The position numbers and the translations under genes are program-made. Below the pieces are notes generated by a model. It saw only the letters and a list, made by a program, of their open reading frames with translations. It searched no databases and was not told the DNA's origin. A stretch of DNA of 64,000 nt, taken from positions 216,522-280,521 of the forward strand of contig DJHM01000011.1 in the NCBI GenBank assembly GCA_002433075.1, given 5' to 3'. This DNA is from Latescibacteria bacterium UBA6620 (GTDB lineage: Bacteria > Latescibacterota > UBA2968). Position 1 is the first letter of the stretch. Every line of letters starts with the position of its first letter. Positions 5,007 to 57,384 of this stretch are shown here, in pieces.

Positions 5007-5624
5007 TCAGACGCCTGTGTCGAACCACTCACCCCGATCTTCCGCTTGGGAGTAGCTCGGATTCTTGATTTTGATCCAGGGCGTTCGCCCATTCACCTGT
5101 CGGTAAGGGCTGTCCCGGGGTTTCGCCACGATGCCTTCCATATACCGCTCGCAGATCATTCCAAACAGGTCGACCCCATCGCCTTCGATATGATCCACAA
5201 AGTGCAGGCGGGGTGCTCCGCCTTCGACCAGTTCCTTCAGCACACCCTTCCGCTCGATACACGGCTTCTCACGTAGACCTTCACCATCCAGCAGCAGGAT
5301 GTCGAAAGCAAAGAAAACAACGGGGGCGCGTGCGGCCATCAGATCGTCGAATTGCGATACGCCCCGATCGTCGACACAAACGAGTTCACCGTCCAGAACC
5401 GCCTGCCGCGTCATTCCGGACAGTGCGCTCGAAACCTGCCGAAATCGATGGAACGCGTGCCGTTTCGTGAAACGAGCCGGCACGTACCGTCGCCAATGTC
5501 GGCAAGACTTCGGAAGCCGTCGTATTTGACCTCGAACAGCCATCCCGGGTCGTCGAACGGATCCGACTGCTTGATCAAGGGGAGGGGCGTGATGATGATG
5601 ACGTCCCCGAGTTCGAACCCGCAA
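5007..5624 (-). pseudogene. ATP-dependent DNA ligase (LigC/LigD ligase-domain type), frameshifted
   Basis: The C-terminal two-thirds of the ORF match the ligase OB/adenylation C-terminal region (AVLDGELVCVDDRGVSQFDDL, EGIVAKPRDSPYRQVNGRTPWIKIKNP). The N-terminal part of the ORF is Arg/His-rich wrong-frame translation. The true N-terminus (PLPLIKQSDPFDDPGWLFEVKYDGFRSLADIGDGTCRLVSRNG, motif I KYDG) is in a different minus-strand frame covering about 5411-5578. A ±1 frameshift lies near 5440-5460. Confidence 0.55.
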
Positions 5625-37537: not shown

Positions 37538-39814
37538 CTACACGTTCTGCCCAAGCATGATGGTCGCACAGGGTGTGTTACGCGCGACCTGTAAAGCCAG
37601 CTCGCCGAACGTTCTATATCGCCGGTTGGTGCGCTTCAGTCCGACGACCGCCAGGTCGCAGTCACTGGCCTTCCGGGCGATTTCATCCACAACGGAGTCG
37701 TTGATGCCTACCCCGTGCGTGCTCCCCGGAGCCTTGTCCCAGGCAATCTGAGCCAATTCACGCTCGGCCCTGACAATCTCGGCACGTGATGCACTTTCCG
37801 GAAGCACGCTCATGAAAACGATCTCGATGTCACCCCCCCCCCGTCTAAGGCTACCCAGTAGTCGAGCGCGCTGCTCGTCGTGTGAGCCCTTCCCCCCGAC
37901 GGGCACGAGCACGCGTCTCACATTCACGAGATTCCATCCGGGCTGAGCTCGGAGAATCGCCACGTCGCAGTCTACCGAGTTGATCAATTCCTCCAGGTCC
38001 GTTCCCACGAACTCGTCAGACAGATCGCTGATTCCCAAAAGAAGTCCCTCGCAGCGGTGTTCATGCGCCACCCTCGCAATCTCGGACCAGGGAACAGGCG
38101 CAATGGTGATCAGAGCCTCAGGAGACAGACCCGCCGCGAAAGAGACCGTGAGACTTTCTCGGATGACCGACTGGGCATCGATGAGCTGGGGCGGGCTGTG
38201 CTCGGGGTGCCAGTCATCCGGTGGCGACACGACAGAAAGGAGGAGCACCCGCCCGACTCCAGGGGGAGCAAGCGCGCTAGCGACGCCGACCATGGCCGCG
38301 GAACTGGCCGGATTGGCAATGGGCACCAGGATGAGGGGGGTCTTCCCCCGCGTGCGGACGAGTTGAGGATCGACGGCTTCCGCAGCCGCATCGACGACGC
38401 GCGCTCTCCGGGCGAAGAGAAACAGATAGAGGATACCGCCGAGCGTCAGCCACGAATAGGTGATCCAGCCTGCCTCGGGTACGGTGATTCCCTGAAAGAC
38501 GGCAAGTGCGGTACACGAGACGGCCCCGATGGTGGGCAACACCGGAAACAGGGGCGCCGTGAAGGCCTCCACCACCGGAGAACGACGGGTTCGAGCCAGG
38601 ATGCTCGTCACGTGAACCAGCGCAAAGGAGATCAGAAAGATGAGACTTGCGGCCGCGCCCGCAGAGCAGACATCGGGGATCGCAACGATAATGACGGTAA
38701 CGAAAACGGCCGTGAGCAGGATCGCGGACGTCGGCGTCCCGCGTCGAGGACTGACCCGGGCAAGGAAATGGGGCAGCGTTCGGTCGTGCGCCATGACCAG
38801 CGAGATCCGGGATGCGGCATACAGATTCGCATACAGCGCGGAAAGCATGGAGAGGAGAGCGGCGATGACGACGAGCCAGAATCCCGTTCGGCCGAGGAAA
38901 TTCTCCGCCGCAACTGCGATCACGGTCTCGGGATGGCTGGAACTCATCTCTACGATCGACGCTCCAACCGGCACGCCCACCGTGGAAACGATGAAGAGGA
39001 GGGGCAGATAGATGACAAGAGCGATCCCAAGGGAGAGGAGCATGGCCCGTGGTAGGACGCGGGATGGATCCCGAACGTCGCCTGCAACCGCGGCAACCAG
39101 GTCATAGCCTTGCAGGGCGATGAAAGTGAACCCCATTGCCTGCAGCAGGCCGATCGAGCCGTGCGCGAAAAAGGGCGTCAGGTTCGAATAGACCGATTGG
39201 GGCGGACGACGACTCAACGCCCACACCCCTGCAATGATCAGGAAGACGAACAGGACGACCTTTCCGATCGTCGACCACTGGGCCCCTCCGGGACGCCTCA
39301 GAACCAGACTGATTGAATAGATGGCGACCGATCCAACAGCCAGCGCGGTGATCGCCAATCGTTCGTTCACGGCCGGCAAAGCCGATTGGAAGACGACCTC
39401 CCACAACGGTTCCAACAAGACTAGAGCAAAGGCCGCGAAGCCCACGGCATAGAGGACGCTGGCCACGATCGAAGCGAACCACACAATCCAGCCCACCGCA
39501 AAAGCGGCTCGAATCGTCAGGACCTTCTTGGCGAACGTATACGACCCGCCCGACTCCGGAAACGCGGTGGACATCTCCGAGAAGCTCGCAACGGTGAGCA
39601 GAGCGATCAGCCCGTTGAGAGCGAAGGCCAGAATCGCACTCGGGCCGGTCGTCTGAAACGCGACACCCGCGAGCGCAAGGATGCCGCCGCCGACGATAGC
39701 TCCCACCCCGAGGCTTGTCGCACCGACGAGGCCCAGCGTACGATGATTGTCCGATGTGTTCATGAGATCAGGAGATGTGCCTGGGTAAGCAAAAATTGGA
39801 CGAAACTGACCCAC
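37538..39814 (-). CDS. APC-family amino-acid permease fused to tandem universal-stress-protein (UspA) domains
   Basis: 758 aa. About 12 TM segments (GATSLGVGAIVGGGILALAG...), then two Usp-like alpha/beta domains (VLVPVGGKGSHDE..., ...ATIMLGQNV). The alternative start MNTSDNH is at 39763. Confidence 0.8.
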   Translation of the reverse strand: MGQFRPIFAYPGTSPDLMNTSDNHRTLGLVGATSLGVGAIVGGGILALAGVAFQTTGPSAILAFALNGLIALLTVASFSEMSTAFPESGGSYTFAKKVLTIRAAFAVGWIVWFASIVASVLYAVGFAAFALVLLEPLWEVVFQSALPAVNERLAITALAVGSVAIYSISLVLRRPGGAQWSTIGKVVLFVFLIIAGVWALSRRPPQSVYSNLTPFFAHGSIGLLQAMGFTFIALQGYDLVAAVAGDVRDPSRVLPRAMLLSLGIALVIYLPLLFIVSTVGVPVGASIVEMSSSHPETVIAVAAENFLGRTGFWLVVIAALLSMLSALYANLYAASRISLVMAHDRTLPHFLARVSPRRGTPTSAILLTAVFVTVIIVAIPDVCSAGAAASLIFLISFALVHVTSILARTRRSPVVEAFTAPLFPVLPTIGAVSCTALAVFQGITVPEAGWITYSWLTLGGILYLFLFARRARVVDAAAEAVDPQLVRTRGKTPLILVPIANPASSAAMVGVASALAPPGVGRVLLLSVVSPPDDWHPEHSPPQLIDAQSVIRESLTVSFAAGLSPEALITIAPVPWSEIARVAHEHRCEGLLLGISDLSDEFVGTDLEELINSVDCDVAILRAQPGWNLVNVRRVLVPVGGKGSHDEQRARLLGSLRRGGGDIEIVFMSVLPESASRAEIVRAERELAQIAWDKAPGSTHGVGINDSVVDEIARKASDCDLAVVGLKRTNRRYRTFGELALQVARNTPCATIMLGQNV
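37833..37842. repeat. C10/G10 homopolymer inside the permease-Usp CDS (encodes Gly-Gly-Gly in the linker)
   Basis: caCCCCCCCCCCgt on the + strand; a rare homopolymer length for this composition. Confidence 0.6.
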
Positions 39815-47639: not shown

Positions 47640-48359
47640 ATGATCGTACACCTGATCGACGGAACTTACGAGCTGTTTCGCCATTTCTACGGCCTTCGGC
47701 GAGGTACGAAGGGCGAGGATCGGCAGCTGGGTGCGGTGAGAGGCGTTCTCGGAACCGTGCTGAAGATGATCGAAGACGGGGCCACCCACATCGGCGTAGC
47801 GACCGACCACGTGATCGAATCATTCCGGAACGACCTCTGGCCCGGCTACAAGACTGGAGCCGGAATCGATCCAACGCTATGGGCCCAGTTCAAACCGCTG
47901 GAGGAAGCGCTGGAGGCGATGGGCGTCCGGGTCTGGCCGATGGTAGAGCTCGAAGCGGACGACGCCCTGTGCTCGGCCGCACTCCAGGCGGAGACGGATG
48001 ACCGGGTCGACAAGGTCTGCATCTGGACTCCGGACAAGGATCTGGCGCAATGCGTCCGGGGTGACCGGGTCGTGCAGATCGACAGGCGGAAGAACATCAT
48101 CCGGGACGCCTCGGGGGTCCGCATCAAGTTTGGCGTCGATCCCGAACAGATCCCCGACTACCTCGCGCTCGTGGGAGACTCGGCGGACGGTTTCCCCGGC
48201 ATCCGCGGAATCGGGCCGAAGACGGCAGCGCGTCTACTCGAGGAATACGGATCCATCGATTCGTTCCCACCAGAGGTCATCGGAGAGAACGATCGGAAAG
48301 ACGCTCTTCTGTTCAAGGACCTTGGCGACCCTTCGGGAGGATGCGAGCGTCTTCGATGA
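47640..48359 (+). CDS. 5'-3' exonuclease/flap-endonuclease domain protein (ExoIX/YpcP-like)
   Basis: 239 aa; LIDGTYELFRHFY, ELEADDAL, LVGDSADGFPGIRGIGPKTAARLLEEYGS (H3TH). Confidence 0.75.
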   Translation: MIVHLIDGTYELFRHFYGLRRGTKGEDRQLGAVRGVLGTVLKMIEDGATHIGVATDHVIESFRNDLWPGYKTGAGIDPTLWAQFKPLEEALEAMGVRVWPMVELEADDALCSAALQAETDDRVDKVCIWTPDKDLAQCVRGDRVVQIDRRKNIIRDASGVRIKFGVDPEQIPDYLALVGDSADGFPGIRGIGPKTAARLLEEYGSIDSFPPEVIGENDRKDALLFKDLGDPSGGCERLR

Positions 48360-48841
48360 TGTAGAGGAGCTGAGATGGAGGGGAGCTGGAGACTGTTTCA
48401 AGGTGTGGGTGGAGCAACTGGGCATGACAAGCTTGCCGCCGGTTCCCAGCTCCTCCTGAATTGAACCCGCCGATATATGCCGAAGGACTCAGATTCGACC
48501 CTGAACACCGAGGTTGGTTCTGAGAAAACAGTTACGGTTGCGACTGAACCTGAATGGTTCCTCCGCCATCTCTCAGATCGCCTCCTCCGAAGTAAAGAGG
48601 TGGATCGGATGCTGAACGCCTGAGTTGAAAATTGATGAAATCTTCCCTGCCGTATCGGTCGCCATCGCGAAGGGTAGCAAAGAAGAAGATGGATACCGAC
48701 CCCCCGGCTTTTCGGTGATCACTTCACACGCGCCGTCGAGTGCCAGAACCATTTGGACGGGGACTTCCTTGACAACGATCCATCTGAGGGGACTACCCTT
48801 CCCTTTCACCCTCAATTGGCGCCCTGACAAGCCCAGTTCGC

Positions 48842-54587: not shown

Positions 54588-54638
54588 GGAGATCCTCCAG
54601 TGCGGCTCGGATGCAAGGACGGAAGCAGGGATAGATGT

Positions 54639-54956
54639 TCAGCTTCTGGAGATGAGATGGACGATGTTCGCGGGACTGCTGATCCAGCAACCCTCGAATC
54701 CTTCGGGCAAGGGTTCGATCTCGTCACACCGAACCACCTCTTCCTGTTCGAGATACTCTTTGGCGACCGTCACGTCGGGCGTGTCCACCTGTAGCCACAA
54801 TTCGGCTTGACTCACCGTGGCAACGCGGTCGAGCCAAAGCTGGACCGCGCCGAACTGGAACCCGCACATTTCGGGTTCCTGCTTCAGCGGGGGCAAGCTC
54901 AGTGTATCGCGGTAAAAGGCGACTGTCTGGTCGAACTCGTGCGGTGGAAGCTTCAT
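54639..54956 (-). CDS. VOC/glyoxalase-like small protein
   Basis: Start at MKLPPHEF. A betaalphabetabetabeta-like pattern with conserved acidic residues. Confidence 0.4.
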   Translation of the reverse strand: MKLPPHEFDQTVAFYRDTLSLPPLKQEPEMCGFQFGAVQLWLDRVATVSQAELWLQVDTPDVTVAKEYLEQEEVVRCDEIEPLPEGFEGCWISSPANIVHLISRS

Positions 54957-55057
54957 CGCGATGTTCTTCCCGCCTTCAAAGTGAGACCGCGATCGATTCA
55001 TCCACTTCTCCCACGATGACAGACTCGCCCAAAGGGGCCCAACCGCTGAGCCCCCAC

Positions 55058-56223
55058 TCAATGGTGGAAAAGTCTTACGCCTGAAAGAACCATCGCCATC
55101 CCGTATTCATCGCACGCCTGTTTCACCTGGTCGTCCGCGATAGAACCCCCGGGTTGCACGACGTACTGAACCCCACTTCGCCTCGCGCGATCGACGTTGT
55201 CTCTGAAAGGCAGGTGACCATCGGAGCTGAGGACAACGTCCTCGAGCCCTCGAAGCCACGACGTCTTCTCTGTCCGGGACAGCCTCTTCGGAATCTCCTG
55301 AAAAGCACTTTTCCACACGCGCTCTTCTGCGACGGTCAGACGTCCATCAAATGCTGATCGATCGCGTTGTCCTTATACGAACGTTTCAGACCTTTCCTGA
55401 AGGACAGCGCCAGTACGGATGGATGTTGACGGAGATACCAGGCGTCTGCCTTCGCCGACGCAATCCGGGTGCAGTGAATTCGTGACTGCTGACCCGCTCC
55501 GATTCCGATCACCTGGCCATCGTGCGCGAGGCAGACCGCATTCGACTGGGTGTATTTCACCGCGATGGTTGCAACGAGCATATCCCGAAAGGCCAATTCC
55601 GGTTCCCGAAGACCACATTTTGCACTACCCCAGGTGAAAGCACCAGATCATTTCGGCGCTGTCGCAGCACCAGGCCGAACACATCCCTGAATTCGCTGTC
55701 GTCAGGTACGTATCGAGGGTCCATCTGAAGCACCACATACTTCCCCGAGAATTTCTTCCGCAGGATTTCCAGCGCGGTGGCTTCATACCCTGGCGCGATT
55801 ACGCCGCAGGAAAACTCACGTCTCAGCAATCTTGCCGTAGAGGAATCGACCGGTTCGCTGAGGGCGACCCAGTCTCCGTAGGATGAAACGCGGTCCGCTC
55901 CCCGAGCCCTGGCATACGCACAGGCCAACGGAGAAAGTTCCAGGTCGTCAACGAAGTAAGCACGTTTCAGGTGATCGCTTAGAGGTAAGCCCACCGCAGC
56001 CCCAGCGGGACTCACGTGCTTGAAGGACGTGGGCGGATGGGAGCCCCGTCGCGGAGCTGAGCTCCTGCACCAGCTGCCACGATTGCAGGGCATCCAGCGG
56101 ATTTACGTATCCGGGCGCGCCGTTGAGCACCTGGAATGACAACGAATCCATCTCTCGGTGGACCGAGGCGGGTTGTTGATGGGGATTGCATCCGTATCTC
56201 AACGTCAGCTGATCCGCGCTCAT
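55058..56223 (-). pseudogene. purH: AICAR transformylase domain of PurH, broken into four frames
   Basis: Four successive minus-strand ORFs in three frames carry contiguous PurH AICARFT sequence: [12 protein letters not shown]; [11 protein letters not shown]...; [33 protein letters not shown]; LSSDGHLPFRDNVDRARRSGVQYVVQPGGSIADDQV...MAMVLSGVRLFHH. No IMP-cyclohydrolase (MGS-like) domain lies upstream. Confidence 0.6.
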
Positions 56224-56417
56224 CTCCTACCTCCGAAGGAAAACGCCCAAACCCCTCATACAGGGGCCCAGGCGCGCGGCATACAGCTCAATCTCTGACC
56301 CAACGCTCCACCGTGGTTCATTCCACGTCGAATCGCCAGTTACGTCGGGTACGTGGTTGACTCAGAATATAGAGAAGTCCCCTACCAGGGGCACATCGCA
56401 TTTACCTGGAGATTAGA

Positions 56418-57128
56418 TCACTCAGTGGGTGCTATTGTCTGAGCTTGTACGATCTGACAGAACTCCTCCCAGCTCTTCACCTCCACGTCCGGGGCGACTC
56501 CCTCTGGATCGAATCCGTGACGGTTGTACCAGATGGCTACAAGGCCGGCGGATCTTGCGCTTTCGATGTCGTACTTCAGACTGTTCCCACAATACCAGGC
56601 CTGATCCGCAGGGATCCCCAGCTTCGCGAGCGCCACCTCCAGGATCAGAGGATGGGGTTTCCTTATCGCACGGTCAGCGCTTGAAAGGACGAACGAGAAG
56701 GCGTCACGTAGGCCGTGATTCTGGAGTTCCCATTCCAGAGCCGGCCCCTAGAAGGGATTGTTGCTGACCACGGCCATCTGGATCTTCATTCGCTTCAAAT
56801 CTTCGAGAACGCTCGCGATCCCCGGTTCGGAGCTGAAGCGGACCGCGCCCTTCCAGAACTCCAGTTCCATCTCTGAGAGTGAAATTCGAAACTGGATTCC
56901 GAGCAAATCGAACAGGGTCCAAAGAAACGTCTGGAACGGCAACTCGATCAGCCCATAGTGTTCCTCCAACTCGGCGCCCATCTGACTCGACGCAGCCTGG
57001 ACCTCCTCCGACGTGTGGGTGGAATCCGTAAAGCCAAGGAGCCTGGCATAGCCCTTTTCGGGATCGTAACGTCGATCTCCGAGAAGGGTACCCCCAAAAT
57101 CGAAAAGAATGGCAAGGGGTCGGTTCAT
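56418..57128 (-). pseudogene. HAD-superfamily hydrolase interrupted by an in-frame TAG
   Basis: Motif I LAILFDFGGTL and motif II VVSNNPF, then TAG (revcomp cta 56748-56750). The same frame continues GPALEWELQNHGLRDAFSFVLSSADRAIRKPHPLILEVALAKLGIPADQAWYCGNSLKYDIESARSAGL (motifs III/IV). Confidence 0.55.
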
Positions 57129-57384
57129 GCGGTTAATCCGTTGGAATCTTGAAATCGTGAAGGTTACAGCTCAAGAACGGTGAATTGCGAATGTGTGCAA
57201 ACTGAAAACCCGGATGATGCGAACGATCGACAGGCTCAGTCATCCATTCGATCCGATCCGATCGTTCCCCTTCACGCGGATCGTGCCATCGGCAGACCGG
57301 ACTTGCTTCGGAATATGAGAACGCCGTTTATTCCCCTGTTCGTTCGTATACAGTGACCTCCCGCTTCAATCATTACGACAGGAC

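Follow-up and report, generated by a model that had tools for sequence, protein, structure and literature searches.

Bifunctional PurH (ATIC; TIGR00355) combines an AICAR formyltransferase (AICARFT) domain with an N-terminal IMP cyclohydrolase (IMPCH) domain, and in some bacteria the AICARFT is a protein of its own. PMC6797443 uses the name PurH2 for the IMP-cyclohydrolase part and PurH1 for the AICARFT part, and the AICARFT-only protein is the PurV of Cruz et al. 2019 (PMC6486802). Their complete-genome survey covered 81 bacteria with purV, of which 63 had no purH and paired purV with purJ or purO, and 18 also had purH (PMC6486802). Genes for this enzyme are linked to a well-described regulatory RNA: purH is among the most frequent targets of the pfl/ZTP RNAs, which act as ON switches and for which ZMP/ZTP is the signal of a shortage of 10-formyl-THF (PMC2864571, PMC7266159). 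A terminator overlapping the 3' part of the pfl RNA is the layout described for such an ON switch (PMC2864571).

The stand-alone AICARFT family, the ZTP riboswitch and the decay of bacterial genes into pseudogenes are each already known, and in this work we describe a locus where they are combined. The locus lies within a stretch of 64,000 nucleotides from Latescibacteria bacterium UBA6620 (contig DJHM01000011.1), which as a whole is called the window below. We put the probability at about 90% that it is a genuine pseudogene which has become fixed in its population and which once encoded an AICAR formyltransferase of the folate-dependent, stand-alone kind (PurV or PurH1-type, family NF005492). 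The case is mildly interesting, as a riboswitch has been left stranded before a dead gene and a staged decay is readable from public assemblies. Three-frame translation of positions 54950-56450 showed that the AICARFT-like sequence, at 55058-56223 on the minus strand, consists of four consecutive segments which lie in three reading frames and are separated by three frame changes. The start signals and the segments are the following:

56221 to 56234, minus strand: Shine-Dalgarno sequence GGAGGTAGGAG (56234-56224) and ATG (56223-56221) of the AICARFT gene, read from the sequence
56032 to 56223, minus strand: AICARFT segment 1, frame 2, 64 codons, M1...LPSA
55590 to 56030, minus strand: AICARFT segment 2, frame 0, 147 codons, with the intact SFKHVSPAG motif inside
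55342 to 55587, minus strand: AICARFT segment 3, frame 2, 82 codons, containing a 14-residue motif
55058 to 55339, minus strand: AICARFT segment 4, frame 1, 93 codons and stop, ...VRLFHH*

The sequence-only reading had placed the AICARFT in three reading frames with at least three indels, and this is borne out by the four segments and by the three lesions whose sizes are given below; its title, which spoke of four frames, was loose in that the segments are four and the frames three. Joined together, the segments give a protein of about 391 aa which matches NCBIfam NF005492 with 574.9 bits over model positions 3-390 of 390. This model is the same as PRK07106, phosphoribosylaminoimidazolecarboxamide formyltransferase, with a length of 390 aa and a cutoff of 415 bits. 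Pfam gives PF01808 alone (E=7e-59) for the joined protein, and both profile matches are far beyond chance. With PurV of this family the window gene shares the length of about 391 aa, the end-to-end profile match, the lack of an IMPCH/MGS domain and the conservation of SFKHVSPAG and of a 12-residue motif. It differs from PurV in having three frameshifts instead of being an ORF and in its surroundings, since many members adjoin purO, purJ or other pur genes and the window copy does not. K69, H70 and the residues surrounding them are invariant in the homolog alignment and present in the window; we take the Lys-His of SFKHVSPAG to be the active-site motif, with the catalytic role that it has in ATIC. 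The AICARFT domain of bifunctional PurH is homologous and positions 205-511 of 511 of TIGR00355 are matched, but with 288 bits the match stays below the cutoff of 528, and there is no N-terminal IMP cyclohydrolase domain.

It had also been claimed from the sequence that no MGS-like IMPCH domain lies upstream, and we agree: the protein aligns from model position 3 onwards and has its own Shine-Dalgarno sequence, and what lies 5' of it is the riboswitch and a HAD hydrolase gene. The IMPCH domain was never part of NF005492 and was not lost by truncation; its absence is the normal state. The accompanying proposal, that the ancestral gene was already split or PurH2-type, is right in its first half, the ancestor being a full-length NF005492 member of about 390 aa. 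The label PurH2-type is wrong, because in the naming of PMC6797443 an AICARFT-only protein is PurH1-type, or PurV. Searched against the PDB, the reconstructed protein matched the AICARFT domain of eukaryotic ATIC with about 460 bits (1g8m and 1p4r; 462 bits for the avian and human domain) and bacterial PurH structures with at most 95 bits. The stand-alone bacterial family resembles this domain of eukaryotic ATIC far more than it does the solved bacterial PurH structures.

Over its full length, the reconstructed protein is 60-66% identical to hundreds of homologs of about 391 aa from Chloroflexota, Latescibacterota, Gemmatimonadota, Firmicutes and others, and the best of 80 loci in GTDB representative genomes is 64% identical to it. 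Among 5.8 billion proteins no close intact ortholog was found, the best homolog being 66% identical. Neither was synteny seen in the relatives identified through the FMN dehydrogenase (85-89% identity), where the neighbourhoods differ and neither a HAD nor an AICARFT gene is present; those homologs of the window's FMN dehydrogenase and 5'-3' exonuclease that carry organism names are scattered over phyla. As there is no such ortholog and no such synteny, we infer the ancestral working state from family membership only. The present state can be read directly. The three frame changes leave no uninterrupted coding sequence, which makes the locus a pseudogene of NF005492 and not a working member, and its only translatable product is a 91-aa N-terminal fragment. 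The host is an uncultured marine bacterium and the loss of the gene is ordinary gene loss.

The sizes of the indels were obtained from conserved anchor motifs in comparison with 117 intact homologs, from reading of the DNA, and from a sister lineage with about 98.7% nucleotide identity, represented by loci L098-L103 from Station ALOHA and other samples. The lesions are:

56031, minus strand: lesion 1, +1 nt, an extra C in the CCC run 56033-56031; the length here is the same in 117 of 117 homologs
55588 to 55589, minus strand: lesion 2, a net deletion of 10 nt which leaves a remnant TT between P and RD
55340 to 55341, minus strand: lesion 3, a 1-nt deletion, GAT to G-T, in the window lineage only

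Between the anchors flanking lesion 2, 115 of the 117 homologs have 37 residues, compared with 33 codons and 2 nt in the window. A 7-nt direct repeat, TTCGGGA, lies in its vicinity, and the site aligns without gaps to the sister loci L098 and L099. For lesion 3, the distance is 14 residues in all 117 homologs and 13 codons plus 2 nt in the window; in L098 and L099 the missing A is still there (GAT, Asp) and the C-terminal ORF is fused to 174 aa. The 91-aa product truncated by lesion 1 is found in both the window lineage and the sister lineage.

Directly upstream of the dead gene lies a ZTP riboswitch which the sequence-only reading did not contain and which changes the reading of the gene. The leader and the flanking genes comprise:

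56259 to 56353, minus strand: aptamer of a ZMP/ZTP riboswitch (pfl motif, RF01750), Rfam cmscan 54.4 bits, model positions 1-86 of 86
56236 to 56275, minus strand: expression platform, an intrinsic-terminator hairpin with a 14-bp stem (56275-56243) followed by the T-rich TTTTCCTT, from a terminator scan
56418 to 57128, minus strand: HAD-IA family hydrolase pseudogene, in a single frame with a premature TAG at 56748-56750
54639 to 55001, minus strand: ORF of 120 aa from no recognised family, 57 nt downstream of the AICARFT gene and N-terminally truncated in a deletion haplotype (junction 54935)

RF01750 is the sole Rfam match in the 64-kb window (E = 2e-8 in a local search; gathering cutoff 39 bits), and the conserved elements ACUGGCG, GUGGAA...ACCAC and CGCCUGGGC are all found in the aptamer. 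The 5' arm of the terminator, GCGCCUGGGCCCCU, reuses the conserved 3' strand of the aptamer, and the stem includes CGCCUGGGC. The folded leader RNA has an energy of -45.3 kcal/mol (z = -3.8). The aptamer ends 36 nt upstream of the AICARFT start codon, and the 194 nt 5' of the ATG hold the riboswitch and then the end of the HAD gene. In all these respects the element resembles a described RF01750 riboswitch, with a full-length aptamer, a terminator over its 3' strand and an AICARFT gene, the classic target, downstream; the difference is that the controlled gene is dead. The same riboswitch exists in front of living genes. In a Latescibacterota MAG (L024), a marine Gemmatimonadota MAG (L025) and Clostridium moutaii (L049), Rfam places RF01750 immediately 5' of an intact member of the family. 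A covariance model built from these three aptamers and that of the window gave same-strand matches in 16 of 96 loci, 5' of the gene or of its operon. The aptamer differs from that of the sister lineage by a single A to G change at 56350 which retains the pair (A-U to G-U), although at a divergence of about 1.3% the conservation of a 95-nt element is uninformative on constraint.

How would this leader have worked? In the working state, the AICARFT gene would have been transcribed behind the ZMP/ZTP riboswitch. When ZMP (AICAR) built up, for example through a shortage of 10-formyl-THF, the ligand would hold the CGCCUGGGC strand in the aptamer. The overlapping terminator would then not be formed and transcription would reach the AICARFT gene, whose product would consume ZMP. 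The leader would thus have responded to the ligand, and the genes of the module were presumably once co-regulated. The riboswitch and the terminator appear intact and are probably a regulatory relic, and the leader may still be transcribed today. A riboswitch can outlive the gene that it controls, and regulon predictions from MAGs should check whether the downstream gene is alive.

The HAD gene upstream is broken in a different way. Its translation reads ...VVSNNPF*GPALEW... at the stop, and in another haplotype (L123, see below) this codon is TCG (Ser). With the stop read as Ser, the protein matches PF13419 and PF00702 and covers positions 4-219 of 221 of TIGR02253. Its motif IV is GN, not GD, and it has a weak resemblance to nucleotidase-type HADs (TIGR02254, YjjG, E = 8e-16, under the cutoff). 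A link between this protein and the dephosphorylation of ZMP is only speculation. Searches of Pfam, NCBIfam and the PDB with the 120-aa ORF gave no match; this ORF is probably the last gene of the AICARFT unit. When the neighbours of the window gene were compared by tblastn with the 80 loci, the module of HAD, AICARFT and 120-aa genes was seen in none of them, and the module is lineage-specific.

The sister lineage and the third haplotype allow the decay to be put in order. The sister lineage has the HAD TAG and lesions 1 and 2 in common with the window and is without lesion 3. In haplotype L123, window position 56679 is joined directly to 54935, and the HAD gene has TCG rather than TAG. The stretch which it has lost is:

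54936 to 56678, no strand: deleted in L123, 1,743 bp, from blastn of L123 against the window

In this alignment, positions 1-754 of L123 correspond to window positions 57437-56679 and positions 748-1069 to 54935-54614. The deletion removes the riboswitch and all of the AICARFT pseudogene, together with the 3' part of the HAD gene on one side and the 5' end of the 120-aa ORF on the other, and since one haplotype has deleted it, the AICARFT module is dispensable. One further locus, L100, contains the L123 junction and the full-length sequence together and looks like a chimeric assembly of two co-occurring haplotypes.

The substitutions between lineages tell of relaxed selection. Between the window and L098, pN/pS is 0.78 for the HAD gene and 0-0.32 for five intact neighbours; the value for the AICARFT gene, 0.98, rests on 12 differences and has a wide error. 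Pooled nonsynonymous and synonymous counts are 17/6 for the dead genes versus 12/25 for the neighbours (Fisher p = 0.003, with small counts). At positions conserved in at least 97% of the homologs, the window deviates at 7 of 128, whereas intact homologs deviate at 1.3 on average and at 5 at most. Substitutions at conserved residues have arisen separately on both sides: P29S, L42P and A65T in the window lineage, and D44G, W119R and A246V, at invariant or conserved residues, in the sister lineage. The order of decay is inactivation, then neutral drift with more lesions, then deletion. In the history that we read from this, the common ancestor of the sampled lineages had its AICARFT gene inactivated by the +1 insertion and the 10-nt deletion, and the neighbouring HAD phosphatase gene suffered a nonsense mutation from TCG to TAG. 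Later evolution was neutral: the window lineage gained the third frameshift, conserved residues were substituted independently in each lineage, and the whole module was deleted in one haplotype. Such a decay can be ordered from public assemblies, with nonsense and frameshift mutations first, then neutral drift and then deletion.

Could the frameshifts simply be errors in an indel-rich patch of one assembly, the true gene being intact? This was the alternative offered by the sequence-only reading, and three frame changes in 1.2 kb next to a broken neighbour gene are suspicious at first sight. However, at least five assemblies, made from different samples with different pipelines, have the same DNA: GCA_002346595.1 (contig DEAC01000026.1), JGI 3300020477, Logan ERR599156 and Logan ERR594323 agree with the window at 100% identity over the 2,601 nt of 54600-57200, and the contig in ENA ERR594339 (locus L015) is identical across the 1,487 nt which it covers, 55714-57200. 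By exact-protein look-up, the truncated product of 91 aa is annotated in about 15 contigs of independent assemblies. One of the lesions is a deletion of 10 nt and the one in the HAD gene is a base substitution, neither of which is typical indel noise. Lesions 1 and 2 are common to a lineage which differs at 1.3% of sites, and lesion 3 is not. The undamaged allele of lesion 1 was not found in JGI metagenome contigs, in which a pattern search for the intact site gave 16 matches, all of them distant homologs with 51-63% amino acid identity. The assembly patch is refuted for practical purposes, and we see scarcely any chance that the gene is intact in the organism. A gene that looks shattered in a MAG can be a true pseudogene, and this one is a cautionary case. 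It might also be supposed that a functional enzyme is still made, by programmed ribosomal frameshifting or from assembled fragments, as the riboswitch, the Shine-Dalgarno sequence, the start codon and the presumably catalytic SFKHVSPAG motif are all intact. We find this hardly believable. Three unlike shifts (+1, -10 and -1 nt in the DNA) would be required, the sequence at all three junctions was read and has no slippery heptamer or prfB-like site, and the internal segments have no start signals of their own. Lesion 2 removes residues where the length is fixed in 115 of the 117 homologs, lesion 3 is absent from the sister lineage, the gene is wholly deleted in another haplotype, and pN/pS is about 1. 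Programmed frameshifting was rejected because of the missing recoding sites, the three shifts, the relaxed selection and the deletion haplotype.

If the locus is a genuine pseudogene, was it the only AICARFT of the organism, and has the lineage lost de novo purine synthesis and come to live on salvage? The survey mentioned above speaks in favour of this, as bifunctional purH was missing from 63 of the 81 bacteria that had a stand-alone AICARFT (PMC6486802). No other pur gene lies within the 64-kb window: when the 145 proteins encoded beside intact members of the family (purO, purD, purM, purN and others) were compared with it by tblastn, the pseudogene was the sole match. In other genomes, the family sits in pur operons, and intact members often have IMP cyclohydrolase (PF07826, 22 of 74 upstream neighbours), purD, purM or purN beside them. 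Here, in contrast, the gene stands alone among catabolic genes, neither purO nor purJ lies near it, and it is controlled by an alarm-type ON riboswitch and is not part of a housekeeping operon. Histidine synthesis moreover inevitably releases AICAR, which an AICARFT has to recycle, so that total loss would be costly. Contigs of 7-8 Mb in close relatives fit a large free-living genome, and the lineages with the dead gene have diverged by 1.3%, one of them having deleted it. None of these points is decisive, and we regard it as unlikely that the only AICARFT was lost. We infer that, more likely, a second AICARFT elsewhere in the genome made this enzyme dispensable.

The pseudogene is not yet evidence of purine dependence. 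Had the only AICARFT been lost, the organism would be a purine auxotroph with a large genome, free-living and globally distributed in the sea, in which the riboswitch was perhaps kept for another role; this is quite improbable. Such an auxotroph would also have to cope with the ZMP from histidine synthesis, and its riboswitch could be, for instance, a ZMP-sensing leader for the 120-aa ORF or a ligand sponge. Metabolic reconstructions of this lineage should count the AICARFT and the adjacent HAD phosphatase as absent, and what this means for purine synthesis is decided by what else the genome encodes.

Another frameshift is present elsewhere in the window:

47640 to 48459, plus strand: 5'-3' exonuclease gene with a +1 frameshift at about 48323-48324, CTTGGCG versus CTGGCG in relatives

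The exonuclease ORF ends at 48359, which gives 239 aa compared with about 272 aa, and the truncated product occurs in 16 contigs. Four loci from independent assemblies were compared here and agree at 100% of the nucleotides. The gene is intact in the sister lineage (L098) and in protein P0288, which is 99% identical, and the frameshift is, after lesion 3, the second lesion confined to the window lineage. The ORF at 5007-5624 on the minus strand covers only positions 58-204 of 204 of PF01068, the ATP-dependent DNA ligase domain, and may be a truncated ligase remnant. The amino-acid permease/Usp gene (positions 1-584 of the locus, at about 37538-39814 of the window) encodes 741 aa in the NCBI MAG (L005) and is divided into 650 and 91 aa in the JGI assembly (L006), which suggests a polymorphic or assembly-specific interruption. 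The window as a whole is dominated by paralogous PhyH dioxygenases, Gfo/Idh/MocA oxidoreductases, enolase-superfamily (MR_MLE) proteins, sulfatases and BNR-repeat proteins.
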